The position numbers were made by a program, and so were the translations under genes. The notes below the pieces were generated by a model that searched no databases, was not told the origin of the DNA, and saw only the letters and a program-made list of their open reading frames with translations. Below are positions 23,270 through 60,974 of a DNA stretch of 64,000 nucleotides, in pieces (positions within the stretch are counted from its first letter, which is position 1; each line of letters opens with the position of its first letter). The DNA is from an uncultured Candidatus Berkelbacteria bacterium. GTDB lineage: Bacteria; Patescibacteriota; UBA1384; UBA12157; JAENIV01. The stretch is from assembly GCA_963698075.1 (NCBI GenBank), contig OY969116.1, positions 465,830-529,829 on the forward strand, in the 5' to 3' direction.

Positions 23270-23294
23270 ACATTTTGAAAAATGTCTAACATTT

Positions 23295-37511: not shown

Positions 37512-39658
37512 TGATAAACTCTTTTCAAAACATAAGCTAATCCTTTTAGGCGAAAAAGTCGGTATAAACGATTAAGTTTTTTGATAAAAATAGGACCGCT
37601 GGCTGGTACCATATAATAATCTACATCTGAACAAGCTAATAAACAACCAGGACAATTTTTTTGTTGAGTATATTTTAGAATTTCCGCTCTTTTCTTTCCC
37701 AAAAAAATTTCTTTAAGGGAATCATTTTTAATATCGCCTAAAATTATTTTATCCCAGCCCCAACATGGAAAAACCTTACCATTATTTTGGATAATTAAAG
37801 AATTTTTAAGTATTTGACAAAATCTCTTGGGATAAATTTTACCGTTTAATAAAAAATAATTAGGAATAGACCTTAATAAACCTTCTGACATAATATCAAC
37901 TTTTTTTATATGCGCATAAGAAATAGTATTTTCGATTTCCTTTTTTAGTTTCTTTAAATCAGACCCCGAAATCCAATAATACTGATGTTTATTTTTTCTT
38001 TTGAATAAATAATCTTTAGAAAAAGGTTGGAATGAAACTTGATAAATTTTTTCTTGTGAGGCTAAGTCTATTACCGATTTCATCTGATTGTAATTTATTT
38101 TCGAAACAACCATCGAAATATTAGTTAAGATTTTTTTATTCTTTAATAACTTGATCGCTCTTAAAATGTTTTCATAACTGTTTGGGCCTCTTATTTTTTC
38201 ATGCATTTCTTTATTGCCATCTACTGAAATATAAATTCTATCAACATATTTAGTAATTAGAGGAGCAGTTTGGGAATCAATTAAACTACCATTTGTTGTC
38301 AAAAAAACCTGATATCCAAGCTCCTTAGCCATTTTCAAAGTATTTAAAATATTAGGATAAAGTAATGGCTCCCCTCCGGAAAAAGAAACCTGCTCTGCCC
38401 CCAAGTTTCGTGCCTGTCTCAAAACCTTTTTTACTAAATTAAAAGATAAAGATTGTTTTTTTGTTTGCCAAATATCACACATCTGGCAATGAAAATTGCA
38501 AGCTGTTGTTAGTTCAATAAAAAGATTTTGTAATCTATTTTTAAAAAGAGGTTTTTGCCTCATTTCTATATTTTTTATCAACTTATCTACAGCCCTTGCT
38601 GTTTGATCCCAACTAAATTTTTTAGCAAATTTTATTGCTTCTTGTCCTGCTTTCTCTCTTTTTTCTTTATTAATCAAAACCTCGATAATAAGATTTTTTA
38701 ACTGGTTGAAATTATTTTTTTCAAATAACCAGCCTGTCTTCTCATTTAAAATTGAATCTTTTAAACCGGGAGCATTGGAAGCAATGGTCGGGGTTCCGCA
38801 GGCCGCTGCTTCAACCACTGTTAATCCCCACCCTTCTTTTATTGATGGCTGAACCGTCACCCAAGCCCTTTGAAACCATTTGGCCTTTTCTTTTTCAGAT
38901 AAAAATCCCAAAAAAGAAACATAAGAATCAAGTTTTAATCTTTGAGTTAATTTTTCAAGTCTTTTTTTGTCATTCCCTATTCCAATTATGACTAAACGGA
39001 TTTTAGGTATCAACCGGATAATGTCTTTAAAAACTTTCAAAAGTAAATCCACCCGTTTATATTTTTTTAGTCTCCCCAAATAAACAATTAGAGCTTCTTT
39101 TTGCTTAGGACCCGGAAGATAAGTAGTATAAGATAATCCTGGATTGATAATTTTAATATTTGAATAGCTAACCCCAAGATTAAATAATTCTTGCCCAGTA
39201 CTTTTAGAAATGGAGATAAAACAGCTTTTTTTATAGAGCAAGAAAAATCCCCGCTCTATTATCGCTAAAATATGGCCTAAAAATCCAAATTCTTTGACAA
39301 ATATTTCTCCAAAAATATCAAGCGCAATCGCAATACAGGGTTTAGATCTTACAAAAAGTGGAGTACAGTAAGGAATTTTATTGGTAAAATCCAAGACTAA
39401 ATCAAATTTATCTTTGTTCTTTAAATACCAAAAAACCGATGTTAAGTTAATAAGCCAGGTAGGTCCCCTTCTGATGACATTGATGCCATTGATTTTTTCT
39501 TCTGGCTTGCTTTTGGGAAATTTAGCACAAAGTAATGTTATTTCATATCTCTTTGTCAATCGAGAAAAAACCTCGTTAAGATAAACTTCGGCTCCGCCGG
39601 CTTTCGGATTTTTAATATCCCACCAATTAAAAATTAAAATTCTTTTTTTCCTTTGCAT
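37508..39658 (-). CDS. Fusion protein: N-terminal GT4 glycosyltransferase plus C-terminal radical SAM enzyme with a SPASM/twitch-like Cys cluster
   Basis: GT4 region EGWGLTVVEAAACGTP. Radical SAM CX3CX2C motif TTACNFHCQMCD with a GGEPLL glycine-rich motif. A C-terminal CWGW...CPGCLLAC cluster. Confidence 0.65.
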   Translation of the reverse strand: MQRKKRILIFNWWDIKNPKAGGAEVYLNEVFSRLTKRYEITLLCAKFPKSKPEEKINGINVIRRGPTWLINLTSVFWYLKNKDKFDLVLDFTNKIPYCTPLFVRSKPCIAIALDIFGEIFVKEFGFLGHILAIIERGFFLLYKKSCFISISKSTGQELFNLGVSYSNIKIINPGLSYTTYLPGPKQKEALIVYLGRLKKYKRVDLLLKVFKDIIRLIPKIRLVIIGIGNDKKRLEKLTQRLKLDSYVSFLGFLSEKEKAKWFQRAWVTVQPSIKEGWGLTVVEAAACGTPTIASNAPGLKDSILNEKTGWLFEKNNFNQLKNLIIEVLINKEKREKAGQEAIKFAKKFSWDQTARAVDKLIKNIEMRQKPLFKNRLQNLFIELTTACNFHCQMCDIWQTKKQSLSFNLVKKVLRQARNLGAEQVSFSGGEPLLYPNILNTLKMAKELGYQVFLTTNGSLIDSQTAPLITKYVDRIYISVDGNKEMHEKIRGPNSYENILRAIKLLKNKKILTNISMVVSKINYNQMKSVIDLASQEKIYQVSFQPFSKDYLFKRKNKHQYYWISGSDLKKLKKEIENTISYAHIKKVDIMSEGLLRSIPNYFLLNGKIYPKRFCQILKNSLIIQNNGKVFPCWGWDKIILGDIKNDSLKEIFLGKKRAEILKYTQQKNCPGCLLACSDVDYYMVPASGPIFIKKLNRLYRLFRLKGLAYVLKRVYQ

Positions 39659-45491: not shown

Positions 45492-46214
45492 TTAATAATC
45501 TTTTTGGATTTTGTCGTTGAGTCTTAATCTTAAAATAGTGACACTGGCTTCATTGATGATACCAACGCCCATTTTGCTTTTGCCTCGGCGGCGTTCCTTG
45601 AAAATAATTGGTATTTCAATTGGTTTAAATCCAGCTTTTAAAGCCTGGTATTTGGTGGCCACTTGAAAAGCGTAGCCATTGGGAAATTCGGCATTTTTTA
45701 GATTAATTTTGGCCAAGATTTTTTTGGGCCACGAGCAAAATCCCGATGTCCAATCTTTAATTTGAAACCCTAAAATTACTTTAGTATAAGTATTACCCAA
45801 CCAACTCAAGAGCAACCTTTTCATATTCCAACCTTTGATTTTACCGCCCGGAACATAGCGAGAAGCGATGACCCAATGATTATCGTTCGCAAAAGCAATC
45901 AGGATTGGAATCATTTGCGGATTATGAGAAAAATCGGCATCCATTTGGATAATATAGTCAAAATTATTCTTTAAAGCGAAGTTAAATCCTGAAATATAAG
46001 CTGGTCCCAAACCTTCTCTAAATTCCCGTTCAATCAAATTTAGGTTTGAATATTTTTTCTGCAATTTTTTAACAATTGTGGCGGTTCTATCTGGTGAATC
46101 ATCATCAACCACTAAAATATGGTAATGAGGATCTACTTGAAAAACCGCCTCAATAATTTCCTTGATGTTTCCCTTCTCATTATAAGTTGGAATGATAATT
46201 AAAACTTTCATCAA
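45492..46214 (-). CDS. GT2 polyprenol-phosphate glycosyltransferase (DPM1/polyprenol-monophosphomannose or -glucose synthase-like)
   Basis: VLIIIPTYNE...VVDDDSPD...DADFSH motifs. About 240 aa with a C-terminal amphipathic region. Confidence 0.7.
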   Translation of the reverse strand: MMKVLIIIPTYNEKGNIKEIIEAVFQVDPHYHILVVDDDSPDRTATIVKKLQKKYSNLNLIEREFREGLGPAYISGFNFALKNNFDYIIQMDADFSHNPQMIPILIAFANDNHWVIASRYVPGGKIKGWNMKRLLLSWLGNTYTKVILGFQIKDWTSGFCSWPKKILAKINLKNAEFPNGYAFQVATKYQALKAGFKPIEIPIIFKERRRGKSKMGVGIINEASVTILRLRLNDKIQKDY

Positions 46215-46369: not shown

Positions 46370-46927
46370 ATGTGGAAATTGCAAAAATTACGACCTTGGA
46401 TTCTTGTTTTGGTCGTTTTGCTAATAATTACCGGTTTTGGTGTTTGGCAAATCAAGCCAACTTCTCAAACTCTAACAACAGATAGCCCTAGCCCTTTATA
46501 CGAAGATTTTCATTTGCTCATCCCCTCTTTAAATATCGAGGTCCCGGTGATAGCCGATGTTGATGGCGCTGACCAAACCGCCTACGATAAAGCCCTCGAA
46601 AATGGTGTGGCTCAGCTCAAAGGTTCGGCCAAACCCGGCGAGGGTTCCAATATCTTTATTTTCGGTCACTCTTCCTTTTATTGGTATAAACCGGGCAATT
46701 ACAAAACTATCTTTGCTAAATTAGAGGATGTCAAAATCGGTGACGAGGTGATTTTATGGTATGCAAAGAAAAAATATATCTATATCGTCAGCGAAACAAA
46801 GGTCGTTGATCCTCAGGAAGTCGATGTTTTAAAACCTACTACTCAAGAACAAGTCAGTTTAATGACTTGTGTCCCACCAGGGACAACCTTACATCGGCTG
46901 ATTGTGATCGCTAAACGCATCCAATAA
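46370..46927 (+). CDS. Sortase-family transpeptidase
   Basis: N-terminal TM segment. His motif IFIFGHSS. Catalytic LMTCVPPGTTLHRLIV (TLxTC...R). Confidence 0.7.
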   Translation: MWKLQKLRPWILVLVVLLIITGFGVWQIKPTSQTLTTDSPSPLYEDFHLLIPSLNIEVPVIADVDGADQTAYDKALENGVAQLKGSAKPGEGSNIFIFGHSSFYWYKPGNYKTIFAKLEDVKIGDEVILWYAKKKYIYIVSETKVVDPQEVDVLKPTTQEQVSLMTCVPPGTTLHRLIVIAKRIQ

Positions 46928-47431: not shown

Positions 47432-48856
47432 TTATTTCTCGGCCCAATCTTTCATGAAGCTAATTGCTTGTTTGGCAAAAAACCAGAAATCTGAAGGTTT
47501 CTTGACGAACTTTTTCAGGCGTCCCCAAATATAAGAAGGTCTAAGATAAAATTGCAAATAGGCGCGGCGGCGCCAAGAAGCTAGTTTTTCCACCGGCAAT
47601 TTTGGCGTGGAAATAATGTTTTTACCGAGTTCGTAATCTTCCCAATCCTTTGAAATTATCCATCCTTTTTGGACGGCTTCTTCATAAAATTTTGTTCCCG
47701 GAAAAGGAATCGCTGAATAAAATTGAATATAGTCAGGATCGATCTCTTTAACAAATTTTATCGTCTGTTTAATCGTCTCCTCAGTTTCTCCCGGCAGGCC
47801 AAAAATGATGTGGGCCGCGCTTTCAATGTCGGCTTCACGTGTCCAGCCAAAAGCCTGGCGAATTTCTTTTAAGGTAATATTTTTACCAATATGGTTTAAT
47901 ATTTTTTGAACTCCTGATTCAACGCCATAGGAAATAATCTGGCAACCGGTCGACTTCATCTCTTTGAGCATCCCAAGATCCACCCGATCAACTCTCGCAT
48001 TGCTCATCCAGCGAAATCTTAGTCCCCTATCTTTAATCCCTTGGCAAATTTTTAGGACGAAATTGCGATCAAAGGTAAAAGTATCGGCCCAAAAAGTAAT
48101 ATCGCGGATTTTATGGACTCGCAAAATCTCTTCAACCTCATCTAAAACATTTTCCGGGCTACGCATCCTGATTTTTGTCCCATAATAGAGATTGGCGGTG
48201 CAAAAACTGCAGTTATTAGGACAGCCGCGGGCGGTAATCACCAGGGTATAAGGCCGATTGTAAATCGGCATTTTGTAGCGTTCGTTCTTTAAGAGATCCC
48301 GGGCAGGAAATGGTAAAAGATCTAAATTATTGATAAATGGCCGCGTCGGGTTATTAACAAAGGTGGGATTACCCCTATATGAAAGACCCTTCACATATCT
48401 TAATCTTTCTTTAGTTCGAAGGTTTTCCGCTAAATCCAAAGCTGTCATTTCTGGTTCGCCGCGGATAATCGAATCTAGAGCAGTTTCAATTAAGGTTAAT
48501 TCCGGCAGCGTCGACACGTGAACGCCAATGGCTGAAAGATGGGTTTTGGGTAAAATTTTTTTAAGTTTTAGAGCAAAGTCGCGGTCAGCGCTAAAAGTGG
48601 CAGTCGAAAAGTTGAGGATTACCAATTTTGGCTTAAAGTGGACAATCTGCCTGATGACCGCTTCGGCTGACATTTCTTCGGCCATACAATCGATCAGTTT
48701 CACTTCAAAACCCTTTTGGCGCAAAACCGCCGCAATTGATGGCAAAGAGATTGGCACCATCAGATATTGAAAAGATGAGGCCCTTTGCTCACAGCGACCT
48801 TCACGAATGTATTTTTCGTGATTAGGCGCTGGCGGGTTGATAATTGCAATTTTCAA
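47432..48856 (-). CDS. B12-binding-domain radical SAM enzyme (class B)
   Basis: N-terminal cobalamin-binding-like Rossmann region (MKIAIINPP...) and CX3CX2C motif GCPNNCSFCTAN. Confidence 0.7.
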   Translation of the reverse strand: MKIAIINPPAPNHEKYIREGRCEQRASSFQYLMVPISLPSIAAVLRQKGFEVKLIDCMAEEMSAEAVIRQIVHFKPKLVILNFSTATFSADRDFALKLKKILPKTHLSAIGVHVSTLPELTLIETALDSIIRGEPEMTALDLAENLRTKERLRYVKGLSYRGNPTFVNNPTRPFINNLDLLPFPARDLLKNERYKMPIYNRPYTLVITARGCPNNCSFCTANLYYGTKIRMRSPENVLDEVEEILRVHKIRDITFWADTFTFDRNFVLKICQGIKDRGLRFRWMSNARVDRVDLGMLKEMKSTGCQIISYGVESGVQKILNHIGKNITLKEIRQAFGWTREADIESAAHIIFGLPGETEETIKQTIKFVKEIDPDYIQFYSAIPFPGTKFYEEAVQKGWIISKDWEDYELGKNIISTPKLPVEKLASWRRRAYLQFYLRPSYIWGRLKKFVKKPSDFWFFAKQAISFMKDWAEK

Positions 48857-48898: not shown

Positions 48899-49318
48899 TT
48901 AAATTTTAATTTTTTCAACCTCTTCCGTTTTCTGGCTAAAAACCCATTTTTTTGTTATAAAAAAATTAAATATTGCCGAAACGGCGGTTGCAAAAATTTT
49001 AGCTAAGATATACCAAAGACCAAATACTTCTACCAAAAAAACTAAAATTATTAAATTAATTCCATTTCCAAGCGCATGAGTTAAAACATATTTAAAAAAT
49101 TGACCCAGATATTTTTTTCTTCCGTCTCTAAAAGTCCAGTATTTATTGATGCTAAAACTGATCCAAAGCACAATTGCAATGGAGCCAACAGCAGCGACAA
49201 GATAAAAAAGATGCAGATATTCAACCAAACTATAAAGAAATAAAAAATCTAAACCAGTTCCCAAGAAGCCAACTAAGATATATTTTAAAAATTGTTTCGA
49301 TAGAAAATAGTTAGACAT
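48899..49318 (-). CDS. GtrA-family membrane protein
   Basis: Four TM segments, about 139 aa, with the GtrA-like pattern (YILVGFLGTGLDFLFLY ... KYWTFRD). Confidence 0.65.
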   Translation of the reverse strand: MSNYFLSKQFLKYILVGFLGTGLDFLFLYSLVEYLHLFYLVAAVGSIAIVLWISFSINKYWTFRDGRKKYLGQFFKYVLTHALGNGINLIILVFLVEVFGLWYILAKIFATAVSAIFNFFITKKWVFSQKTEEVEKIKI

Positions 49319-49321
49319 TGT

Positions 49322-50131
49322 TCAGCTCCCTTTTGGTAATTTCTGGCAAATTGCTATAAAAGCTCCAGTTTTAGATAAATCTTCGGAATAATAAATATCA
49401 GACAACTCGATTTTTTTGGGATGAGAGATACCTTTTTGATATGTCCAAAAGTAAATTTTTAAATACCCGTGGTAAATTAGCTTTTTTATTATCGAAGGTA
49501 GATTGGCGTATAGGATTCTGACGAATCTTTTCGGACTCCATTTGGGATATAACAATCTTTCGGAACCTTTAAAATATTGACCTAATATTTTTTGGATTTT
49601 AAAGCCTATTAATATTTTTTTGAAATCATTGAGAAACCATTCGTGATAGTGAAAGGGGTGAAAAGGTTTTTTGGTGTCAGGGGAATAGATTGCTTTATTA
49701 GGAGTGGAGATAATCAGCAGACCACCTGGTTTTAAGACTCGAAGAAGTTCGCTGACTGCTTTCTCGTAATTCTTGATATGTTCAATAACCTCAAACGCGC
49801 AGATTTGATCGAAAGAATTATCGTCAAAGTCTAAATGAGTAATATCCCCCTGTTTGAAGAAAAGGCGGGGATTAAAGTGATGGGTTTGGCAGTATTCAAT
49901 TGAATTAGCAATGATGTCAACACCGTAGACCTTTTTAGCGCCGGCGCGAATAAGTTTGTAAGATCCATAGCCAGCGCCACAGCCGATATCTAAAATAACC
50001 TTATCTTGGGCATATTGAGTTGCTAATTTGTAGCGCGCTGATGAGGCTTGTGCCTCATGCAGAAATTTTGTCTTAGTCGGTATTAGAGAACTTTCTAAAT
50101 AATAATAGTTATCTTTTTTTCTTGAGAACAT
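49322..50131 (-). CDS. Class I SAM-dependent methyltransferase
   Basis: ILDIGCGAGYGSYKL motif I and VLKPGGLLII motif. Confidence 0.65.
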   Translation of the reverse strand: MFSRKKDNYYYLESSLIPTKTKFLHEAQASSARYKLATQYAQDKVILDIGCGAGYGSYKLIRAGAKKVYGVDIIANSIEYCQTHHFNPRLFFKQGDITHLDFDDNSFDQICAFEVIEHIKNYEKAVSELLRVLKPGGLLIISTPNKAIYSPDTKKPFHPFHYHEWFLNDFKKILIGFKIQKILGQYFKGSERLLYPKWSPKRFVRILYANLPSIIKKLIYHGYLKIYFWTYQKGISHPKKIELSDIYYSEDLSKTGAFIAICQKLPKGS

Positions 50132-52731
50132 TATGAATCCTTTCTTGGTTTAATGATCCATCTGATTATTAGCGGCAGAAGAAAAATAATAACAAACAAG
50201 AGATTTAACCAGCTACTATATTTCTGAACAGGTGAATTTCCAAGTTTATAATTCATTTCTATTTGATGAGCCCCGGCTGGCAGATCGAGAGCCATCAGAT
50301 TTTCAACCCTATAAATTTTGATTTCTTGACCATCTAAATAGGCCTTCCAATATGGTGAATAAGTGAAGGAAATTAAAACAGGAGTTGATTTTTCGGCAGT
50401 ATAGGAGAATTTTTTAGATTCCGGTTCCAATATCTGATTAGAGAAGGTAATTTGGGGGGAATTTTGTTTAGTACTAACATCGGTATTATGTACAAGTTCT
50501 TTAATAAATTCAATTTCTTGGTCGTTATGGGTAAGAAAGGCATGATAATAAAGATTACCTCCTATAAACCAGACCTTACTGCTTGCCCCTTCGGGGCCCT
50601 CGATTTCTTTATAGCCAACAATGTCAGTTTCTTCGCCAGTTTCATTCATTTTCAGAACAGATCCATCCAAGCCCATATAACTCATAAATCCCCATTCTTT
50701 AAATGGTTTTTCAGCATAGTCCCCAAAACCAGTTAAATCTTGAATTTCATTTGGCATTTCAATTTTTGTAGGAACGTAATTTGGGCTGTCATTGTTTTTT
50801 TCTAAAGAAAGGGTATTTGTTATTTTTCTGGGGATTCCCGTTACTCCTAAAAAATATGGAAGATCTTCTAACTTACCTTTTTCAATTCCCTGAAAATCAA
50901 TAATTACTTTCCCGCCGCCTTTAGCATATTCCTTGATTAAAACTTCTGCCTTTTTCTTGTCATGATAGCCAAAACCGTAAAGGACAAGGCTATCAAAATT
51001 TTTTAAAAAATCAAGATCGTAGTCATCGATGAAAGTCGAATTGCCTTGAATAGCCATTAAATTTCTGTCTGATAGAACCGCGGCGGCGGTATTGGCATAA
51101 TTGCCGACAACTAAGGTTTTTTCTTTGATCGGGATTATGTATTCCGATGGGGCATCTTTATAATATAGGATATAATCTTTACCATGATAAATTATCTTAA
51201 AGCCGTCTTCTTCCATTTTTTTAAGGAAATCTATGGCATAGCCAACTCTTTTTTGGCGAAGCGGCGAGAAGGCCTTGGGATCTTTTTGGTAAAGTTCTTC
51301 AGTCGCTTGAAATTCAGCGCGTATCAAGACATAGCGAACATTTTGATATTTTATAGCGTTGATGGCTTGGTTGCCAAAGTCATATTCAATATCATCAAAA
51401 ATCCAAGCGATGTTAGGACCTGTTCTAGCCAGAGCAAAATACAGACCATCGTTAGAGGAAAAACCGGTTGCCTCGGCTAATTCAGGCCAAAGCAAAGTGA
51501 TTCCGAAGGTGGCGTGTACAGGCATAACCCGTCCACCATTCTGAGTGAATTTGTTTAATAATTCGGGGGCGAAAAATGCCACTTGTGGATTTGAAAGTTG
51601 AGTAAAATGATAGATCTTATCAGATTGGTAAAGTCCCAGAGTCAAAATTACCAGTGCCGCCACAATCTTTACACTAATGATTTTAAAACCGAAGGTTTTT
51701 TTAAAATCAATGGCGCTTGCCGTCAAATAAATAAAACCAAAAGTCGCCACATAAACCCAGAGTGATGGACGAATAAAGGAAATGACGATAGGGATGGGAG
51801 CATTAACTCCTAAGCTAAGATAGAATGCAAACAAGGAGAGCACGAAAAGAGCTGTTTTTTGAGCCTGACGATTTTGGATAACAGAATAAAAACTAACTAA
51901 AATATAAATAACTGGTACGATGTTTTTTAAAAGATAATAAATTGAAAAAAATGAAGTTTCTCTAAGTGTTTCTCCGCTCATCGCGGACACATTGCCGTAT
52001 TCTAAGACAAAAGGAAGAAGGTAAAATGAGACTAAAGCAAGCGCGAATATTTGAGCGGCTAATAACATTAGAAAATGAATGCTGGACATTTTTGAAGAGA
52101 AAAGGACATAAAGAAAGCCGTAGAGTACCACTGCTGCCATAATGACTAAACCTACCATTGGATGGGCTAAGAGCGAGAGACCAAGTATTAATGATAAAAT
52201 CAACAGGCGAGAATACCTTCCTTTTTCTAAAAGTTGATTTGTGCAGTAAAAGGCGAGTGGTAAACAAACTAAAGCCAAGGCTTTTGTTCGAGCTTCAGTG
52301 AATATTACTGGAGAGATGGCCCACATTAAAGAACCCAACAACGTTGTAAAAAGATTGAATTTTTTTCTTAAAACAAAAAACATTGCTAACGCACTTAGCA
52401 GGGCGATTACGAAAAAGACAAGCGTGCCGGTATAATCAATATTATTAGTTAGCCAATAAATTAAGATAATTAAAGGGTGAATCAGGGGAGGAGCGTATTT
52501 TATTTCAAAGTTGTTATACCAATGAGGATCAATTAAAGCTATTTTATGATATTGCTGCCAATAATCAGCGATGATTTTTGCCGTATGAGTGAAAGAAAGA
52601 GTGTCAATGCCAATTGGCGGACCAGGGGTAAAAAGAACATTTCGAAAAATAAAAGTCAGGAAAGCGATTAAAATTACCAGGGCAATGATGGCCGCTAATA
52701 TCGCCTCGATCCTTTTGGGTGGTTTTTCCAT
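50131..52731 (-). CDS. Large polytopic membrane protein (866 aa) of the YfhO / PTPS-related membrane-protein type, with a C-terminal extracytoplasmic domain
   Basis: About 13 N-terminal TM segments, a roughly 450-aa soluble domain and a final C-terminal TM segment. The family assignment is by architecture only. Confidence 0.45.
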   Translation of the reverse strand: MEKPPKRIEAILAAIIALVILIAFLTFIFRNVLFTPGPPIGIDTLSFTHTAKIIADYWQQYHKIALIDPHWYNNFEIKYAPPLIHPLIILIYWLTNNIDYTGTLVFFVIALLSALAMFFVLRKKFNLFTTLLGSLMWAISPVIFTEARTKALALVCLPLAFYCTNQLLEKGRYSRLLILSLILGLSLLAHPMVGLVIMAAVVLYGFLYVLFSSKMSSIHFLMLLAAQIFALALVSFYLLPFVLEYGNVSAMSGETLRETSFFSIYYLLKNIVPVIYILVSFYSVIQNRQAQKTALFVLSLFAFYLSLGVNAPIPIVISFIRPSLWVYVATFGFIYLTASAIDFKKTFGFKIISVKIVAALVILTLGLYQSDKIYHFTQLSNPQVAFFAPELLNKFTQNGGRVMPVHATFGITLLWPELAEATGFSSNDGLYFALARTGPNIAWIFDDIEYDFGNQAINAIKYQNVRYVLIRAEFQATEELYQKDPKAFSPLRQKRVGYAIDFLKKMEEDGFKIIYHGKDYILYYKDAPSEYIIPIKEKTLVVGNYANTAAAVLSDRNLMAIQGNSTFIDDYDLDFLKNFDSLVLYGFGYHDKKKAEVLIKEYAKGGGKVIIDFQGIEKGKLEDLPYFLGVTGIPRKITNTLSLEKNNDSPNYVPTKIEMPNEIQDLTGFGDYAEKPFKEWGFMSYMGLDGSVLKMNETGEETDIVGYKEIEGPEGASSKVWFIGGNLYYHAFLTHNDQEIEFIKELVHNTDVSTKQNSPQITFSNQILEPESKKFSYTAEKSTPVLISFTYSPYWKAYLDGQEIKIYRVENLMALDLPAGAHQIEMNYKLGNSPVQKYSSWLNLLFVIIFLLPLIIRWIIKPRKDS

Positions 52732-54408
52732 CTATCCTCTTTCCTTAATCTTCTGCTCATTAAAAACTCCATCAAATCTTTTTGTTCCATTAAAACCGTT
52801 CGGCTTCGTATTAGGACTAATGCCTAAGCCAAAACCGTCCAATTCGGCGATTTTCTCCTCATAATAAGGCGCTGGTTCAACTTTGCGGCCGCTAATAAAT
52901 TGCCAAACTTTCAAGCCAAAATTGGTTGTTTTTTGATAACCACCTTTGAGCGAAGAACGGTATTCCTTAACCGATCGAACCGGATTAATCGGAGTAGTCC
53001 AGGCCTGGGGTTCTTTTAGTGTTTCCAAATAGCCGGCAAAACGGAAATAAAAGGTTAAAAGCCGAAAAAAAGGTGTTACGAGACAAAATTGGATGCTGTT
53101 TTTAATTTGTTCTCTCGCTTCTTTGTCAACAACCCGGTAACAATATAAAGCATTCAAAAAATCTATCAAAACATAAAAAGCGTACATAAGAGAGATTGCC
53201 TCAATAATTAAAGTCATCGAGTAGCCGAAGAGAAAGAACAAGGGAAGCATGAAAATCCAGATAATTCGGGGAAAACTAAAAGTATGGTCTATTATTAAAA
53301 GGATGGTCAGCCAAAAATTGCGCCAAAAACCCTTACGGAAATTGCCGTACCAATCAAGATGCAGACCAATGACTTCAATCTGACCCCGGTGCCAACGAAT
53401 TCTTTGAGCGTAGAACCTTTCAAAAGATAGAACAGGTTTAAGATAGGCTTTGGCATCGGCAACAAAGCCAAGACGGATATTTTGTCCTTGGAGATCTAAA
53501 GTTAAGTCAGTGTCTTCGGCAACGGTTCGGGATTGGTACATCGCCGAATGAAGGATTACCTCCCTTCGGAAAGCCGAAAATGCTCCAGAGAAAGTGTACA
53601 TCGAGCCGGTAATGTCCTGAAACTGGCGACCCAAACGAAACGAAGTTAAGTATTCCATAAACTGGGATTTGGCGAGGAAATTTTCCTTACGGGATAATTC
53701 CCTTGGTTTATAATGACCGTCGTCCAAAAGATAGTTACCTTGCAGATCGCGCTCATAAATTAACCGCCAGCCAATCTCGACGTTGCCGGTTAAAGCGCCG
53801 TATTCTGGTTGGGTGACAAATTTCCTGACCATATTATAAATTGCATCCGGCGCCAAAAACGACCGGCAGTCAATGTTAATAATGATTTCGCCCTGCGAGA
53901 GACGAATGCCGGCATTGAGCGCTTTGGCCTTGCCTTTTTCATTACGAACCACCAATCTTAAAAGTCCGCCATAGCTTTTAAACTCGTAAGCATGGCCATC
54001 AACTATGAGTTGGCGGTGATGATTATTTGAATGCACTGCATTCCCTTGTTTTACCTGCCAAATCTCTTTCATGTGTTTTTTGACAATATTACTTGTCTCA
54101 TCGGTCGAACCGTTATCAACCACGATTATTTCCATTTTTTCTTGCGGATAATTCTGAATCTTTAAGTAATCTAAGCATTCGTTGATATTTTCCTCTTCGT
54201 TGTAAGTTGGAATGATGACGGAAACTTTTGGCAGTTTACTCGGATCAAGTTTCACCTTACTGGCGATATCGCGTTTGGCAATAGTATGATACTTTTCGGT
54301 AAAAACAATCGTGAGCATGTAAATTAGAGTTAATACCCCGTCAAAAAGCACCGGAATAATAATCCAAACTCCCCAGAAAACCGCCAAAATAAACAAGTTA
54401 TTATTCAC
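52732..54408 (-). CDS. Processive GT2 glycosyltransferase (cellulose/chitin/poly-GlcNAc synthase-like) with membrane domain
   Basis: SVIIPTYNEE...VVDNGSTD...INIDCRS...RIRWHRGQ (QxxRW-like) motifs. N- and C-terminal TM helices. Confidence 0.7.
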   Translation of the reverse strand: MNNNLFILAVFWGVWIIIPVLFDGVLTLIYMLTIVFTEKYHTIAKRDIASKVKLDPSKLPKVSVIIPTYNEEENINECLDYLKIQNYPQEKMEIIVVDNGSTDETSNIVKKHMKEIWQVKQGNAVHSNNHHRQLIVDGHAYEFKSYGGLLRLVVRNEKGKAKALNAGIRLSQGEIIINIDCRSFLAPDAIYNMVRKFVTQPEYGALTGNVEIGWRLIYERDLQGNYLLDDGHYKPRELSRKENFLAKSQFMEYLTSFRLGRQFQDITGSMYTFSGAFSAFRREVILHSAMYQSRTVAEDTDLTLDLQGQNIRLGFVADAKAYLKPVLSFERFYAQRIRWHRGQIEVIGLHLDWYGNFRKGFWRNFWLTILLIIDHTFSFPRIIWIFMLPLFFLFGYSMTLIIEAISLMYAFYVLIDFLNALYCYRVVDKEAREQIKNSIQFCLVTPFFRLLTFYFRFAGYLETLKEPQAWTTPINPVRSVKEYRSSLKGGYQKTTNFGLKVWQFISGRKVEPAPYYEEKIAELDGFGLGISPNTKPNGFNGTKRFDGVFNEQKIKERG

Positions 54409-55545
54409 TTAATCCTCCTTGATGATATCGATTAAATAACTTGAAGGCTCTTTGCCAATGTTTTTCACTCTAATTTCTAAAATATCTTCCATTCCAACAT
54501 CAATGTCTTTACCAAAAACTTTGTAATCTATAAGAATACCTTGAGCTGGAACAATCGCCCGATTTTGCAAAATGTCACCCAGATAAACTTCGATCATTAC
54601 CGGGCCTTTGCCTTCCTTGATTTGAAGATTCATTTGATCGGGTTCGAGGATGCTTCTTCGATATTGCCATGCTTGTCCTGGGGCTAAATCTTTAATATTG
54701 ATTTGATCTAGACGATTGAAGCTGGATTCCTCGCCCAAAATTGCTGGCGATGAAGTCATGCCCGTTTCTTCTTGATAAATTATCGGCCGTTCTTGCTTGG
54801 CAACTTGGATAAACGCTTTGTGCCACTCATTGCTCATCTTGAAGCTCACAAATGACAAGCCGATGGCAAGAATGATAACCATGGCTTGAGCTAAAGTGTG
54901 GCGCCACGTCAGGGAATGGCCAGATCTTGCGGTTTGAGCTAATGACTGGTGGTTACTAATGCTATCGCCAACTGACTTGACCGACGGCTTGGTCATCAGA
55001 TACCAATATAATAGTAGTTCGAGAAGGAAGAAGAAAACCCTGGCCACGCCGGCATGAGCTAAGAATATATAGTCGGGTCCAAACTTATAAGCCATCAACA
55101 CAATAATCATCAAACGGACGATGTTGATGACATAAGTTACAACCAGACCAAAAACAATTCTTAACGCTCGCTGGCGCAAACTAAATAAAGGATAAAAAGC
55201 GATAAGACCGATTAATATGCTCGATTCCAAAATCGCCGAACACTCAATGCCAAGCTTCAGAATCGAACTGCCGCCATCGGTTAGCACAATTTGAAACCGG
55301 CCGTTGGACATCAGTTCCATTGGAATATGGAAAATATCTTTGCTGATGAGGTCGACATGGAAACTAGCCATGTTCACCAAAAGCTGGTCAAGGCCGAAAT
55401 ATTCGGCCAAAAAAACCAATTGGATCGTCAGTCCAAAAGCGGCGATTAAGTAATAGAAAAGCCACTGGCGATGTCGGCGAAACACCAGCACAAGTGTCAG
55501 CCAGATCGGGAAGATGATAATTGTGGCAAGTAAGCGTGAATCCAT
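54409..55545 (-). CDS. Exosortase/archaeosortase-family protein (XrtG-like context) with a C-terminal EpsI-like extension
   Basis: Eight TM core with a Cys motif LKLGIECSAILESS and an Arg motif NIVRLMIIV. One extra TM segment plus about 130 aa of soluble C-terminal domain. Immediately upstream of the GT2 synthase. Confidence 0.6.
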   Translation of the reverse strand: MDSRLLATIIIFPIWLTLVLVFRRHRQWLFYYLIAAFGLTIQLVFLAEYFGLDQLLVNMASFHVDLISKDIFHIPMELMSNGRFQIVLTDGGSSILKLGIECSAILESSILIGLIAFYPLFSLRQRALRIVFGLVVTYVINIVRLMIIVLMAYKFGPDYIFLAHAGVARVFFFLLELLLYWYLMTKPSVKSVGDSISNHQSLAQTARSGHSLTWRHTLAQAMVIILAIGLSFVSFKMSNEWHKAFIQVAKQERPIIYQEETGMTSSPAILGEESSFNRLDQINIKDLAPGQAWQYRRSILEPDQMNLQIKEGKGPVMIEVYLGDILQNRAIVPAQGILIDYKVFGKDIDVGMEDILEIRVKNIGKEPSSYLIDIIKED

Positions 55546-55547
55546 AA

Positions 55548-55660
55548 TAAACTTAAAACTTAAATGTCAAAGCTAAAAGTTTCATGAAAAAGTTTAAAGG
55601 ATGAATCTTTTTAGTTTTTTGCTGCAGTTTTAACATTTGCGTTTTTAGCTTTTAGTTTTG
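55548..55660 (-). repeat. Copy R2 of the ~105-bp repeat family
   Basis: Near-identical to R3. It carries the mini-ORF MLKLQQKTKKIHPLNFFMKLLALTFKF (55553-55636), which ends 7 nt before the exosortase ATG. Confidence 0.55.
55553..55636 (-). CDS. Leader-like mini-ORF (27 aa) encoded by repeat copy R2
   Basis: ATG at 55636, TAA at 55553-55555. Homologous to the N-terminal 27 aa of the 742-aa protein. No ribosome-binding site is visible. Confidence 0.2.
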   Translation of the reverse strand: MLKLQQKTKKIHPLNFFMKLLALTFKF

Positions 55661-57873
55661 TATTCTCTTCGCGAAATTCCATCAATCGACTTTGTCACCC
55701 GTAGCTTTAGCGAAGGGTGAACTTGATGGTTATGTATAATCTGCTTATTATCTGAACCTAATGTTTCTACCGGTGGAATATGTTTATTTGGCGGATCTTG
55801 AATATCTTTCAGCCCGATATTGCCATTCTTTCTAATTCTGATAACTCCGGTTCTCACCCCCAGAAAAACGGCGCAGCCGATCAGCATCATAAACAACAAC
55901 TCCGTCAGCGTCGGTACAGAGGTAAAGGTGACTGTGGCAGTGGCGTAGATGATAGTATCGCCAGTGTTGTGCCATTTTGCCCAAATAGTATAGGTGGTGT
56001 TGGAGGGAAAATTGTTGTTGGCACAGCTTTGAATGTCCTCGGCGTTGCTATTCGCCGCCACATCTAAACCGGTTTTTTCCCAGGTAAAGTTAGCCTCGGA
56101 AGCCCAGGCGGCTGATCCGGCGCAAGCCGCCGTTATGTACGTTTCGTCAATATCCGGAATGCCATCGCTATCACCGTCAATGAAAATGATGTATTTAATG
56201 TGGGTGCCGGTGCGGTTGGCGCTCGTATTGTTATAGGCGGTGGCGGTGACAGTGATAGTTTGACCTAACGTTGGATAAGAACCCGAATCGGTGGCCACCG
56301 TCATGTAAGAAGTATTTCGCCAGTACTGATACGAAAATCCCTGCTGCGGATGATTGGGTTTAGTACCCAAAGAGGAAGCGGAGGCCATATTGCTCCAAGC
56401 CAAATTTCCCGAAGAATCCATCGTGAGTTTATAAGCGACAATTTGATTAGTTGAATCAGAAAGAGATTGGATTAATTCGGCAGGGTTAAACGGATTCATG
56501 TCCGTGTCGTAACGGCCGCGGGTATCGTTTATGGAGGGCGTACTGGTATAATCACTAGGCGAAGAAATGGCTCCGCCGTTTATGGCATATTTGTAGCCGA
56601 TCCCTGTTCCGGTATTGTCGTCATAAGATATGTACCATTTCGTATTGCCATTATTTGTCAGCCATCCGGTTGTTACCTTCTTTGATCCCACAGAAACCGT
56701 CGTTTCGGTGCTTGTATCCACATTCGCATAACCGGTCCAAGGCCCGGTACCGTCCCAATAGCCTGCCGACATGTCAAAGCTGACGCCCCCTATGCCTGCC
56801 ATCGCCATTTTGTTTGAAAGGGGATCTGCAGAAAGGTCTATCGTCATACACTCATCCGCCGGCCCCGGCAATGTGGTCAGTGCCGACCAAGTACAACCTG
56901 AAGTTCCTCCCGTGCATGTCATATACCGGTAACCATTCGTGCCGCTGGCGCCGGCCGAATTTCCCCAGACAACCATATATTCACCTGACAAAGATTCCGC
57001 TTGAACATCAAAGTTATCGCTATCACCTACTGCACTTTGATGCTCCATAGACGTTTCTATTTGCTTAAAGTTTGTGAAAGCAGAGCCACTCCATATCGCT
57101 CCACCTAAATCGGCATTAGTGGCGGCATTGTCGAGCCAAACCCAGGCGCTCAAATTTTGAGCAGACCTGCCGTCGCGGGCGGCTTTGACCCACATTACAG
57201 TCGCGCTTGTTGCGGTGGTAGTGGTTGGAAAATTCGCCGCGGCAGCCCAATTTGCGGTTCCACAACCTGTGCTTCCCGCTTTAGTTCGGTAGGCCAAAGC
57301 GTTGACCGCAGCTGTGTTTCTCGAATAGGCTACAGTGACATCACCGGTGGCTGTTTCATAAGCAATATCAAACCGCCGAGTGGTCGGCGTGCCAGCGCCT
57401 GCCACTGCCACAGTCCAATCTTCAGACCAGGTTGTGCCGTCATAACAGAGTACCCGCAAATTTCCGGAAGTGTCCTGGTAGCCGGCAATCGCTTCTCGCC
57501 TGGTCGGTGAAGTTTTAATTTGATTGATTACTGGTTGAGCGCCGACCACAGTACCGGCGTTCGCCGAAAAATCATTGGTTGCATTATCATACGTTCTAAA
57601 TTGTGGGGTTGTATTTCCCGAGGCGGCATAAAAAAGGATGCCATCGCCATTACTGGCCGTCGCGTAAGCTTTCTTTGGCGCGACACCGCTAAAAATGCCA
57701 ACGACAATAGTCGCGATGAGCAGCCAGGCAATTTGTCGTGCCAGCCATCGAGCCGAAACTGAAAACTTAAATGGCAAAACTAAGAGCTTCATGAAAAAGG
57801 ATAGAAGATTAATCTTTTTAGTTTGTTGCTGTTGTTTTAACATTTGCGTTTTTAGCTTTAAGTTTTTTGCCAT
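55645..57873 (-). CDS. Secreted 742-aa protein with a Lys/Gln-rich N-terminal extension, signal peptide and a C-terminal motif-TM-basic segment; unknown domains
   Basis: Start set at MAKNLKLKTQ (57873), because the longer ORF would overlap the upstream gene. Signal peptide AWLLIATIVVGIFSGVAPKKAYA. About 50% GC. C-terminal VPTLTE-LLFMMLIGCAVFLGV-RTGVIRIRKN is followed by about 65 more residues. Confidence 0.5.
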   Translation of the reverse strand: MAKNLKLKTQMLKQQQQTKKINLLSFFMKLLVLPFKFSVSARWLARQIAWLLIATIVVGIFSGVAPKKAYATASNGDGILFYAASGNTTPQFRTYDNATNDFSANAGTVVGAQPVINQIKTSPTRREAIAGYQDTSGNLRVLCYDGTTWSEDWTVAVAGAGTPTTRRFDIAYETATGDVTVAYSRNTAAVNALAYRTKAGSTGCGTANWAAAANFPTTTTATSATVMWVKAARDGRSAQNLSAWVWLDNAATNADLGGAIWSGSAFTNFKQIETSMEHQSAVGDSDNFDVQAESLSGEYMVVWGNSAGASGTNGYRYMTCTGGTSGCTWSALTTLPGPADECMTIDLSADPLSNKMAMAGIGGVSFDMSAGYWDGTGPWTGYANVDTSTETTVSVGSKKVTTGWLTNNGNTKWYISYDDNTGTGIGYKYAINGGAISSPSDYTSTPSINDTRGRYDTDMNPFNPAELIQSLSDSTNQIVAYKLTMDSSGNLAWSNMASASSLGTKPNHPQQGFSYQYWRNTSYMTVATDSGSYPTLGQTITVTATAYNNTSANRTGTHIKYIIFIDGDSDGIPDIDETYITAACAGSAAWASEANFTWEKTGLDVAANSNAEDIQSCANNNFPSNTTYTIWAKWHNTGDTIIYATATVTFTSVPTLTELLFMMLIGCAVFLGVRTGVIRIRKNGNIGLKDIQDPPNKHIPPVETLGSDNKQIIHNHQVHPSLKLRVTKSIDGISRREYKTKS
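57761..57873 (-). repeat. Copy R3 of the repeat family (fused in-frame as the N-terminus of the 742-aa protein)
   Basis: Same sequence family as R1 and R2. It encodes MAKNLKLKTQMLKQQQQTKKINLLSFFMKLLVLPFKFS. Confidence 0.55.
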
Positions 57874-57874
57874 A

Positions 57875-58255
57875 TTAAACCTCGCTCTTCCTAAGGAAGT
57901 CTTCAAAATCGTCCTCGCGGATGCGGTAGAATTTACCAATCTTTATCGCTTTTAGTTTCTTTTGCTTTATAAGACGCGCGACATAGGTGCGGTGGATCTT
58001 TAAGGTTTCCGCGACATCATCAATCGTCAATATCGCGACAAGTTTGCCGCCGATAAGCTTTTCTAACTGATCTTCTCTAATACGATAAAAGCGGCCGATC
58101 TTTAAGGCCGCTAATTTGTCCGTCTTTATAAGCGTCGCGACATAGGTGCGGTGTACTTTCAGTATCTCGGCTATCTCTTCAATTGTGTACACCCCCACAC
58201 CAAATTTTTTGGTAGTGGGGGTAAATTCTGGTTTTCTATTCTTGTCGCTATTCAT
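57875..58255 (-). CDS. Tandem double helix-turn-helix DNA-binding protein (excisionase/Xis-MerR-type HTH x2)
   Basis: Two internally repeated modules, IEEIAEILKVHRTYVATLIKTDKLAALKIGRFYRIREDQLEKL and IDDVAETLKIHRTYVARLIKQKKLKAIKIGKFYRIREDDFEDF. Confidence 0.6.
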   Translation of the reverse strand: MNSDKNRKPEFTPTTKKFGVGVYTIEEIAEILKVHRTYVATLIKTDKLAALKIGRFYRIREDQLEKLIGGKLVAILTIDDVAETLKIHRTYVARLIKQKKLKAIKIGKFYRIREDDFEDFLRKSEV

Positions 58256-58526
58256 TTTTATACATAAATGTCTATCAAAACGACTTTATATTTACTAAAA
58301 TATCTTGATTTTATACAAAATGTCTTAATTGAGTCAAAAAGACTCAATTTAATTTTATCTGTCTTTATTTAACACAATATAACATTCTGCTGTCAAGTCC
58401 TCGTCTATCTCTCCTTTTGGTTGTGGATATTTTTTCTTACCTGTGGATAACTTTTTCGCTTGGCGTCGGTTTTACCCAACGAAATTTTCGTCTAGATGTC
58501 ATTTCCCTGTCGCGAAGATGTCTTGA

Positions 58527-58555: not shown

Positions 58556-58586
58556 AGTAGGAGGGTTGTGACAACGCAAAACTTAA

Positions 58587-58964
58587 ATGGCAAAACTCAA
58601 AGTTACAACAGAAAACTCAAAGCAGAATCTGAAATATCGTTCTTACCTATATTCTTTAGAGATCGTTAAATTTGTCGTGGCTTTGCCGCATTCAAAGATT
58701 ACAGAAATTATGGGTGCGCAACTTTTGCGGTGTGGAACAAGTACGGGAGCTAATATTGTTGAAGCCCAAGCAGGCACATCGAGAAAAGACTTTATTAATT
58801 TTTATTCTCATGCTTTAAAATCAGCCAATGAGGCCAAATTTTGGTTATGTTTATTTCGCGATTCTAAGACTAGCAATCGAGACAAAGTTCTCTTTTTGTT
58901 AGATGAAACCATCCAAATAGCCAATATGCTTGCTAAAAGCATCTTAACTTTGAAAGGTAAATAA
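58587..58964 (+). CDS. Four-helix-bundle protein (TIGR02436 / 23S rRNA intervening-sequence-protein family)
   Basis: YRSYLYSLEIVKFV...QLLRCGTSTGANIVEAQAG.S.KDFINFYSHALKSANE pattern. Confidence 0.65.
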   Translation: MAKLKVTTENSKQNLKYRSYLYSLEIVKFVVALPHSKITEIMGAQLLRCGTSTGANIVEAQAGTSRKDFINFYSHALKSANEAKFWLCLFRDSKTSNRDKVLFLLDETIQIANMLAKSILTLKGK

Positions 58965-60285: not shown

Positions 60286-60387
60286 AATTATCCTTTCTGT
60301 ATTTATTATACATTATGATGTATATTTGTCAAGAGGCAATTTGGGAGGTTTACAATCGAACCAAAGATATGTATTATAATGGTGTAT

Positions 60388-60462
60388 TCCCCGGTAGCTC
60401 AATGGTAGAGCATCGCCCTGTTAAGGCGCTGGTTGTCCGTTCGAATCGGACCCGGGGAGCCA
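60388..60462 (+). tRNA. tRNA-Asn (anticodon GTT), CCA encoded
   Basis: TCCCCGG-TA-GCTC-AATGGTA-GAGC-A-TCGCC-CTGTTAA-GGCGC-TGGTT-GTCCG-TTCGAAT-CGGAC-CCGGGGA-G-CCA. A TATAAT box lies at 60375-60380, 7 nt upstream. Confidence 0.85.
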
Positions 60463-60470
60463 ACATCAAC

Positions 60471-60974
60471 ATGGATCAAAATAATTCAGAGCGAAAAGAA
60501 AATCTTCAGCTTCCCAAGATTATTTGTGGGATTTTAACTCTGGTGACCATCGCCACCATTCTCTTGGGATTCTATTATAAGAATCCATTTATCATAATTT
60601 GCGGCATTTTCCCAGCCGCGATCTATGAGATGGTCCGAACTGAAGGCTATTATACCCGCTCGGGCTCAATCATCATCACCATTTTAGTAATTTTAGAGAT
60701 CTTGGCCATCAAAGGCATCCTCAAATTCAATCTCAGCCAATGGCTGGGCCGCGATCAGGTCTATTTGAGCGGTTATTGGTTGCCTTTAGGCGATATTACT
60801 TTTATCTTTCCCGCCGTTGCCGTCATTATCTCGATTGTCCTCTTTTTCCGCACCTACGGCATTTATACCAAATGGCTGGCAATCTTGCTTTTAGCCAGTT
60901 CAGCTTGCCTGCTTTACTTAGTCAATAAAGAAACTCTTTTTGAACTAATTAGAACCCAAAATTATCTATTTTAA
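60471..60974 (+). CDS. Membrane protein (about 5 TM segments, 167 aa); the start is trimmed to follow the tRNA-Asn
   Basis: The longer predicted ORF overlaps the tRNA. The first in-frame ATG after the tRNA is at 60471. Confidence 0.4.

Follow-up and report, generated by a model that had tools for sequence, protein, structure and literature searches.

A probable one-enzyme, one-target exosortase operon with a VPTL[TG]E sorting signal in a bacterium of the Candidate Phyla Radiation

Which protein does the exosortase encoded in a 64-kb stretch of DNA from a bacterium of the Candidate Phyla Radiation (CPR) act upon, and how is it related to the sugar-polymer enzymes encoded beside it? A preliminary description of this stretch (hereinafter the window, meaning its full length) had picked out a three-gene cassette coding for an 866-aa membrane protein, a processive family 2 glycosyltransferase (GT2) and an exosortase, with limits for the three open reading frames (ORFs) that are exact (Table 1). 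We find that the cassette most likely belongs to a five-gene surface-protein sorting operon comprising an XrtG-related membrane protease, its single likely cargo and two sugar-polymer enzymes, with a regulatory gene at its head. The whole is best explained as an XrtG-type protein-sorting operon with one enzyme and one target (probability about 0.72), a glycan being tentatively put first among the possible acceptors. Systems of this kind, in which a dedicated XrtG-type exosortase and its target are encoded side by side within a glycan locus, are known. What appear to be undescribed are its VPTL[TG]E signal, the transmembrane (TM) helix and jelly-roll tail of the CPR enzymes, the substrate-enzyme fusions, and the spread of the system to the CPR, Actinomycetota, Chloroflexota and archaea; within the library searched, no paper mentions both exosortase and Patescibacteria.

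The three cassette ORFs (378, 558 and 866 aa for the exosortase, the GT2 and the third protein, respectively) all lie on the minus strand with abutting junctions or overlaps of 0-1 nt, and are hence transcribed in the order exosortase, GT2, 866-aa protein. The full gene order is helix-turn-helix (HTH) regulator, cargo, exosortase, GT2, PTPS-related/GT-C-like protein, methyltransferase, GtrA and B12-binding radical-SAM (S-adenosylmethionine) enzyme, and a scan of the cargo-exosortase spacer for promoter-like or terminator-like sites found none. The cargo ORF (55645-57939) encodes 764 aa from a TTG at 57939; the likely start is the ATG at 57873, one base past the stop codon of the 126-aa HTH gene, with a GAGG located 6 nt before it, so that the product would have 742 aa. 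We compared the window with 56 related loci, 18 from species-representative genomes and 38 from metagenomes (designated by L numbers below). Homologs of the HTH protein directly precede the cargo in 24 of these, and the gene is confined to the CPR; in that clade the operon regularly opens with it, and its product, with tandem HTH domains, is a probable transcription regulator. As for the source, the exosortase has 51 database homologs, all metagenomic, and the few that are named come from Patescibacteria or Berkelbacteria, while the PTPS-related, methyltransferase and GtrA proteins of a Candidatus Berkelbacteria metagenome-assembled genome (MAG; L003) are 89-93% identical to those of the window. 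Thus, the genome is that of a member of the Patescibacteria/CPR, probably of Berkelbacteria, and not of a Firmicute or a classical Gram-positive bacterium, as the preliminary term 'Gram-positive-type' would have it.

The placement of the enzyme is clear at the level of the superfamily: the hidden Markov model (HMM) of the exosortase/archaeosortase signature, TIGR04178, matches it with 52.8 bits against a cut-off of 23. Among the subfamily models, XrtG (TIGR03110) is the best match by far with 84.3 bits, the next one reaching 27 bits; however, this score is below the cut-off of 102.75 and the match is confined to residues 9-190. Its relatives score 67-106 bits on the same model, the sole one to pass being an archaeal member. 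PF09721 matches the window protein weakly (17 bits) and 29 of 32 homologs (best E 3e-7), and the identity to canonical XrtG proteins is 20-30%. As the neighboring GT2 is likewise below the cut-off of its XrtG-associated model, TIGR03111, we regard the system as a sister clade rather than XrtG proper. Hence, the XrtG-type arrangement recognized earlier stands as to the best matches of all three cassette proteins (TIGR03110, TIGR03111 and PTPS_related) and has to be relaxed as to membership. In an alignment of 51 homologs, including three canonical Firmicutes XrtG proteins, Cys102 (in the motif ECSA) is kept in 49, the exceptions being one deletion and one serine, while Asn141, Arg144, His164, Glu107 and Arg169 are present in all 51, bearing out the Cys and Arg motifs first seen in the translation. 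Cys, Arg and His constitute the proposed catalytic triad of the exosortase/archaeosortase family (Haft preprint). In the exosortase of the Berkelbacteria MAG (L003:3936-4937, 333 aa), residues ~55-101 are absent, and the catalytic Cys, which borders this gap, is gone as well; the cause is either a deletion or an assembly artefact.

The gene directly upstream of the exosortase codes for a large secreted protein in which scans against Pfam and NCBIfam detect no known domain family. Its C-terminal region reads TFTS-VPTLTE-LLFMMLIGCAVFLGV-RTGVIRIRK, followed by 60 more residues, i.e., a motif, a TM helix and a basic cluster as in tripartite sorting signals, and this is the only copy of the signal in the window. 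Across bacteria and archaea we recovered about 43 loci with this signal, which resides in the adjacent upstream gene in about 30 and is fused in-frame to the exosortase in the remaining 13. From 38 non-redundant loci its consensus is F-x-S-[VI]-P-T-L-[TG]-E, then a TM helix and then a Lys/Arg cluster, with F(-3) in 29, S(-1) in 31, [VI] and P in all 38, T in 34, L in 35, [TG] in 34 and E in 27. Four further loci, among them both archaeal ones and one from Chloroflexota, have small unrelated upstream proteins ending in YYVPTLGE, YSVPSLGK, YSVPTLGP and YSVPTLGW. The motif is thus near-invariant in 38+4 loci spanning Patescibacteria, Actinomycetota, Coriobacteriia, Eubacteriales, Chloroflexota and two archaeal classes. 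The bodies of the cargo proteins are often unrelated while the signal stays constant, as would suit a tag better than an interface between subunits. Motif and TM helix adjoin with no spacer in the split forms, and likewise in L013 and similar fusions, an arrangement described for the targets of intramembrane sorting enzymes, as opposed to LPXTG signals that typically have one (Haft preprint). The adjacency of a target to its enzyme or its fusion thereto matches the published pattern of a 'dedicated' sorting system. Taken together, these features turn the earlier suggestion that the large upstream protein might be a cargo into a well-supported proposal, and we consider the 742-aa protein to be probably the dedicated substrate of the exosortase.

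This signal escapes current models. None of the sorting-domain models of NCBIfam (release 20.0) detects it in the window; TIGR04145 (Firmicu-CTERM), which as a control finds canonical cargos at 154 and 94 bits, does not match the window cargo even at E<=10. The closest curated motif is IPTL-CTERM, the first 8-9 positions of which align to the VPTLGEWG/M of fused forms with 10-11 bits (cut-off 20.5). This likeness recalls XrtH and its targets (TIGR04177, TIGR04174, NF033207); however, the signal scores 10-14 bits against cut-offs of 20.5 and 45, and the enzyme 14 bits on XrtH as opposed to 82-84 on XrtG. The family name 'midcut-by-XrtH' suggests a precedent for an exosortase signal located away from the extreme C-terminus. 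An exhaustive HMMER search with the domain preceding the motif plus the signal against 1.84 billion representatives recovered 43 clusters only, and several of the matches are internal with 190-350 residues after them, as expected for fusions. The 60-aa extension beyond the basic cluster is present in most, not all, CPR cargos; its absence in L021, L023 and L042-L044 indicates that it is not essential to the signal. A word-indexed search with this extension returned nothing.

The 13 fusions provide Rosetta-stone-type evidence for the link between cargo and enzyme. In them, the TM helix of the signal and an RRRRW cluster constitute the first TM helix (TM1) and first cytoplasmic loop of the exosortase itself. 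SVPTLG runs directly into TM1 in L013 (a fused form of 1022 aa) and the CPR-type fusions, while most of the others have a short linker; the fused enzymes retain the catalytic residues. Together with the charge distribution, the fusions point to an exosortase with its N-terminus outside: RRHRQW would lie inside, Cys102 and His164 would be located on the outer side, and residues 185-215 would be inside again, with the C-terminal beta domain outside.

The close relatives of the system (L002-L043, with exosortase cores 84-91% identical to that of the window) show a mosaic when compared to window positions 50131-57873. The 31-aa signal is 68-84% identical in them, and the cargo body is mostly undetectable by tblastn, being found only in L023 (88%), L020 (38%) and L003 (30%). 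Their PTPS-related proteins fall into two classes, with 83-91% or about 31% identity. This pattern suggests that modules are swapped, or that the parts exposed at the surface are under diversifying selection. Several CPR loci (L021, L030/L031, L032, L037) also carry two or three HTH-plus-cargo modules, some of them in divergent orientation.

The enzymes encoded downstream accompany the system in many of the related loci. The GT2 possesses an ED motif and QRIRW in its translation, which confirms the QxxRW reported earlier, and its matches to PF00535, PF13632 and PF13641 make it a processive GT2 of the BcsA/PgaC/NodC type. Its residues 273-424 align to 317-469 of BcsA, i.e., the catalytic/TM core (E 1e-9), and it is 28-29% identical to canonical TIGR03111 members. 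Among the 55 related loci having an exosortase match, a GT2 homolog was detected in 45, and it directly follows the exosortase in nearly all that extend past it. The 866-aa protein was suspected to contain a PTPS-related domain and PF10131 indeed matches it, while TIGR03766 does not; it shares 21-32% local identity with the PTPS-related protein of the Eubacterium eligens XrtG locus and has homologs in 27 related loci at the threshold used. By co-occurrence in the 56 loci, the core of the system is made up of the HTH gene (in the CPR), cargo, exosortase, GT2 and PTPS-related gene, with the radical-SAM enzyme, a small 240-aa GT2, GtrA and the methyltransferase being accessories. The small GT2, which lies near the system in nine loci, is a possible partner of GtrA and the GT-C-like protein, and, going by similarities at the level of families, these three might together form a three-component extracytoplasmic glycosylation route.

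From these observations we propose the following mechanism. Sec would export the cargo, whose C-terminal TM helix would tether it with F-x-S-VPTLTE at the outer face of the membrane and the Lys/Arg cluster inside. Cys102, Arg144 and His164 of the exosortase, situated near the outer leaflet, might then cleave at the motif via a thioester intermediate and transfer the mature cargo to an acceptor, by which it would be kept on the cell surface. The most likely acceptor would be the glycan that the co-transcribed BcsA/PgaC-like synthase produces and the GT-C-like protein modifies, the main alternative being a membrane lipid, and the CPR-specific TM helix and jelly-roll might bind either the glycan or the cargo and hold it in position. 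The attachment of lipid by archaeosortase A, taken as an analogy, and the near-obligatory GT2 synthase lead us to put the co-synthesised glycan tentatively first among the acceptors, a lipid close behind it, and simple release of the cargo as an unlikely outcome. The computations thus bear on the operon structure, the family placement, the conservation of the catalytic residues, the signal with its strict adjacency or fusion to the enzyme, and the fold of the tail, while cleavage, transpeptidation, the nature of the acceptor and the ligand of the tail are proposals.

Several points count against this interpretation. The 60 residues past the basic cluster of the window cargo are atypical for C-terminal sorting signals; the scores on the XrtG and TIGR03111 models are below the curated cut-offs; and we found no experiment showing cleavage for any XrtG-type system. 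The acceptor is putative, and a polysaccharide deacetylase, which could create an amine nucleophile, is present in 0 of the 56 related loci. The fold of the exosortase tail, a generic jelly roll, names no ligand. Three fused CPR genes (L037, L039, L040) have no GT2 after them. Finally, a Saccharibacteria fusion (L004, 2-6556, 2184 aa) has two hydrophobic segments (SVPTF-TM-STKT-TM1) before its RKYREW, a misfit with the simple out-to-in topology of the other fusions.

A bolder form of the proposal would make the enzyme a protein-to-glycan ligase, which cleaves at VPTL[TG]E and covalently attaches the cargo to the nascent polysaccharide, with the fused forms being self-processing, single-turnover versions. 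We regard this as doubtful; if true, these would be the first enzymes of the sortase, exosortase or rhombosortase kinds to be seen fused to a substrate, and the system would offer ultrasmall CPR bacteria, Actinomycetota and some archaea a route to display swappable surface proteins on a glycan layer.

Somewhat improbable is that the exosortase cleaves its cargo only for it to be released hydrolytically or transferred to a membrane lipid, with the glycan genes being merely co-regulated envelope functions. The precedent for it is archaeosortase A, which removes the C-terminal TM helix of the surface glycoprotein, with lipid being attached (Haft preprint); one-step transpeptidase action by exosortases and archaeosortases is unresolved and the anchoring moiety is known for some systems only (Haft preprint). 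Archaeosortase A belongs to a homologous family with the same Cys/Arg/His set, and two archaeal loci carry a system of the window type; yet it represents another subfamily with another motif, many targets and a lipid, as against the single adjacent target and the link to a glycan synthase observed here. The fused CPR genes without an adjacent GT2 would also fit such an outcome, as would the fact that we found no chemical cargo-glycan link in this analysis. Against it stands the recurrence, across bacteria and archaea alike, of the GT2 and PTPS-related genes, which adjoin the exosortase in nearly all loci extending far enough, and at least one of the fused genes devoid of a GT2 appears back-to-back with a complete split system (L032/L037).

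It is much less probable that the exosortase-like protein is a non-proteolytic subunit of the glycan synthase, with the upstream or fused protein as its permanent BcsB-like partner and VPTLG as a structural element. The regular presence of a BcsA-like GT2 invites the comparison with BcsA-BcsB, the fusions could be plausible single multi-domain subunits, and Foldseek matches of the TM-anchored beta-sandwich tail include the carbohydrate-binding domains of BcsB along with CBM6/36/35. However, with E about 1e-3 these are weak matches, of a fold that is generic; there is no BcsB homolog here and the partner is an exosortase of the cysteine-protease type. Moreover, the invariance of Cys, Arg and His even in the fused forms, the motif-TM helix-basic architecture classic of cleaved sorting signals, and interchangeable, unrelated cargo bodies that keep the signal alone all speak for processing instead.

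That the window merely holds the canonical, already catalogued XrtG/Firmicu-CTERM system is hardly tenable, close as the resemblance is. The annotated loci of Lactococcus lactis, Aneurinibacillus and Eubacterium eligens have the same order of a Firmicu-CTERM protein, xrtG, the TIGR03111 glycosyltransferase and a PTPS-related/TIGR03766 protein, and a 2026 paper describes a 'complete XrtG system' of Lactiplantibacillus plantarum with a Firmicu-CTERM protein, XrtG and two XrtG-associated glycosyltransferases. As these annotated loci place Firmicu-CTERM proteins directly upstream of xrtG, the preliminary statement that no substrate is established for this arrangement is outdated, at least at the level of annotation. 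Both systems share the order of cargo, small polytopic exosortase, processive GT2 and large polytopic membrane protein, the pairing of one enzyme with one adjacent target, and the Cys, Asn, Arg and His residues; XrtG and TIGR03111 are also the best HMM matches of the window proteins. However, both of those scores are sub-cut-off and TIGR04145, which picks out canonical cargos, is blind to the cargo here. The canonical signals are Gly/Ser-rich (TGGSTGG, NTAGASSG, TANTVPSF) and lie in a 190-aa Firmicu-CTERM domain, as against F-x-S-[VI]PTL[TG]E. A QueD-like 6-carboxytetrahydropterin synthase gene, which we use as a working criterion of our own drawn from three of three canonical loci and not as a published definition, is absent from the window and the 56 related loci in tblastn searches. 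The additional TM helix and beta domain, the upstream tandem-HTH gene of the CPR members and the fusions were not seen in the canonical loci examined. The hosts differ too, with CPR, Actinomycetota, Chloroflexota, Clostridia-type MAGs and archaea on one side and Firmicutes on the other. In the Lactococcus lactis plasmid pBV60 (L058, 2956-9234) a canonical XrtG system on a conjugative plasmid immediately follows the genes for a diguanylate cyclase and an EAL-domain protein, a hint that cyclic di-GMP may control XrtG systems.

The least credible explanation, that the classical sortase with its gene at a distance of 7.5 kb acts on the VPTLTE protein, whose motif would be a degenerate LPXTG, can draw on the presence of that enzyme in the window, a P-x-x-T in the motif and a signal architecture common to LPXTG signals, and is dismissed because a sortase is found in 0 of the 56 related loci, true LPVTG/LPETG substrates exist elsewhere in the window, and the motif abuts its TM helix without the LPXTG-type spacer, is fused to the exosortase in 13 loci and occurs in archaeal loci too.

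Table 1. Coordinates of the sorting operon and of associated features in the window.
Feature	Position	Strand	Remarks
Promoter-like site TTGACT-18-TAAAAT	58308..58337	-	10/12, consensus match only; ~55 nt before the first operon gene
126-aa protein, two excisionase-type HTH domains	57875..58255	-	TIGR01764 91 bits, two stretches
Putative dedicated cargo, 742 aa, secreted	55645..57873	-	N-terminal signal-peptide-like region (..IAWLLIATIVVGIFSGVAPKKAYA/TAS)
Repeat copy A	57756..57866		5' end of cargo gene, codons for KNLKLKTQMLKQQQQTKKINLLSFFMKLLVLPFKF
Tripartite sorting signal	55828..55926	-	FTS-VPTLTE motif, TM helix, basic cluster RTGVIRIRK
60-aa cargo tail after the basic cluster	55648..55827	-	motifs ..KDIxxPP.. 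and ..SIDGIS..; probably cytoplasmic
Repeat copy B	55549..55659		fills the cargo-exosortase spacer (99 nt); 87% identical to copy A
XrtG-like exosortase, 378 aa	54409..55545	-	membrane core aa 1-197 (54955-55545)
Cys102, Arg144, His164 of exosortase	55240-55242, 55114-55116, 55054-55056	-	from alignment
Additional TM helix, aa 214-237	54835..54906	-	AlphaFold model; predicted to return the chain to the outside
Nine-strand jelly-roll beta-sandwich, aa 276-377	54415..54720	-	AlphaFold model; predicted extracytoplasmic
Membrane-embedded processive GT2 synthase, QRIRW	52732..54408	-	TIGR03111 278 bits (cut-off 364); PgaC 137 bits
866-aa polytopic PTPS-related membrane protein	50131..52731	-	PF10131 117.9 bits; PMT_2 28 bits (GT-C-like N-terminal region)
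SAM methyltransferase	49322-50131	-	homologs in 6 related loci
GtrA-family protein	48899-49318	-	homologs in 6 related loci
B12-binding radical-SAM enzyme	47432-48856	-	homologs in 9 related loci, incl. one Actinomycetota locus
Sortase	46370-46927		PF04203 Sortase 91 bits, TIGR01076 73 bits
240-aa soluble GT2, polyprenyl-phosphate sugar synthase-like	45492..46214	-	best AglJ, ArnC, PgfS, PpgS, all sub-cut-off
Small proteins with LPVTG and LPETG signals, TM helix, basic tail	16838-17341 and 17371-18021	-	

The C-terminal part of the exosortase had been described as an extra TM segment followed by an EpsI-like region. The helix is indeed there, along with about 140 further residues; however, the likeness to EpsI has to be given up at the level of sequence, as neither an NCBIfam scan with the tail alone at E<=10 nor a Pfam scan of 32 family members at E<=1 gives a match to EpsI (PF11984/TIGR02914). 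Among the PDB structural matches listed for the tail, no EpsI entry was noticed. In the AlphaFold2 model (mean predicted local distance difference test, pLDDT, 82.9) a helical core of residues 1-197 and the additional TM helix of residues 214-237 precede a conserved RPIIYxEET motif and a disordered linker that leads into a nine-strand beta-sandwich; modeled in isolation, the latter domain reaches a pLDDT of 86. By way of comparison, the polysaccharide-locus setting is shared with XrtA/PEP-CTERM/EpsI, and the order of exosortase core, TM helix and extracytoplasmic domain is positionally analogous to exosortase-EpsI fusions, with which it was compared by HMMs only. The differences are the lack of any EpsI match, a jelly-roll domain of ~100 aa and an XrtA score of at most 24 bits. 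The TM helix and beta domain are found only in the CPR clade, with the beta domain duplicated in three members, while relatives in other phyla consist of the core alone (about 195-205 aa). This tail is the most variable part of the exosortase, with identities of 27-66% as compared to 84-91% for the core. A gene in the gap of L006/L048 was considered as a split-off equivalent of the tail in core-only systems and rejected because it encodes a soluble, unrelated protein.

The repeat-encoded leader mini-ORF noted upstream of the exosortase is real, as is the repeat; what falls away is its conservation. A direct repeat of 111 nt occurs at the 5' end of the cargo gene and again in the spacer (Table 1), where it gives rise to a mini-ORF of 27 codons at 55553-55636 (MLKLQQKTKKIHPLNFFMKLLALTFKF followed by a stop), a copy of cargo residues 10-36 with its stop 7 nt before the ATG of the exosortase. 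In relatives, the corresponding interval between the two genes varies from an overlap to about 680 nt, and its sequence is neither homologous nor alignable. A regulatory RNA or conserved leader was rejected for this reason and since the RNA folding of the repeat copies is not significant (z -1.56 and -0.66), an Rfam scan of the repeat gave no match, and the spacer is free of promoter-like and terminator-like sites. Hence, we read the repeat as a probable genome-specific duplication of the 5' end of the cargo gene, which may be the scar of a cargo-cassette exchange. A 17-19-nt motif of the repeat recurs upstream of HTH genes in four relatives, overlapping the start of a conserved divergent gene; as the 19-nt AAAACTTAAATGGCAAAAC it precedes the HTH genes of L021, L029 and L033, while in L040 its place is immediately before the fused exosortase ORF. 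In the window, a third partial copy of the repeat (76%, 58573-58622) overlaps the start of a divergent gene for a four-helix-bundle protein (58587-58964, plus strand; TIGR02436).

Glycan genes extend over 34.4 to 55.5 kb of the window, in keeping with the '23-kb glycan locus' of the preliminary description; however, most of that extent is a separate neighbor, since most genes of the 34-47 kb region are absent beside the system in its relatives. Specifically, the deacetylase, Wzx flippase, family 4 glycosyltransferases (GT4), second GT-C protein, tetratricopeptide repeat protein and sortase do not co-occur with it in any of the 56 related loci. Deacetylated poly-N-acetylglucosamine as an amine acceptor was thus rejected, the deacetylase and the rest of the glycan genes at 34-46 kb being found in 0 of these 56 loci. 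Within the neighboring glycan locus, a 716-aa protein (37508-39658, minus strand) joins a GT4 glycosyltransferase to a radical-SAM/SPASM domain; its homologs occur close to the exosortase system in four loci from outside the CPR (L006, L007, L008, L052).

The exosortase and a sortase/LPXTG system do coexist within 64 kb as reported; this is not unusual, given that canonical XrtG occurs in sortase-bearing Firmicutes. With its absence from the related loci, the sortase is excluded as the processing enzyme and is an independent neighbor, not linked to the exosortase system. Its likely substrates, judging by their signals, are the two small LPVTG and LPETG proteins, which adjoin a Peptidase_S24-like gene (18543-19130, minus strand). 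Elsewhere, the window codes for a giant surface/adhesin-type protein of 2431 aa (25068-32363, minus strand) with two Laminin_G_3 domains as well as fn3, CBM_4_9 and Big_1 domains; the G+C of its region is raised (0.48-0.49), as is that of the cargo gene. A tRNA-Ile gene (anticodon TAT) is located at 23197-23270, and a tRNA-Asn at 60388-60462 (plus strand) lies inside a mechanically called 219-aa ORF (60315-60974, plus strand), which is therefore probably not a gene.

To our knowledge, no exosortase has been reconstituted in vitro. The system described here is a clean test case with one enzyme, one obligatory neighboring target, a sharp motif and candidate acceptor-making enzymes in the same operon, and its natural single-chain enzyme-substrate fusions constitute a tractable pair for probing Cys-dependent self-cleavage, rendering exosortase chemistry directly testable. 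New exosortase flavors turn up regularly, and it is the fusions and the one-to-one layout that set this one apart as testable. It also brings to light a sorting signal overlooked by present annotation pipelines, and carries XrtG-type sorting beyond the Firmicutes, into CPR bacteria, Actinomycetota, Chloroflexota and methanogen-related archaea. In an epibiont-type lineage with a little-known surface biology, it identifies a rapidly swapped surface protein.

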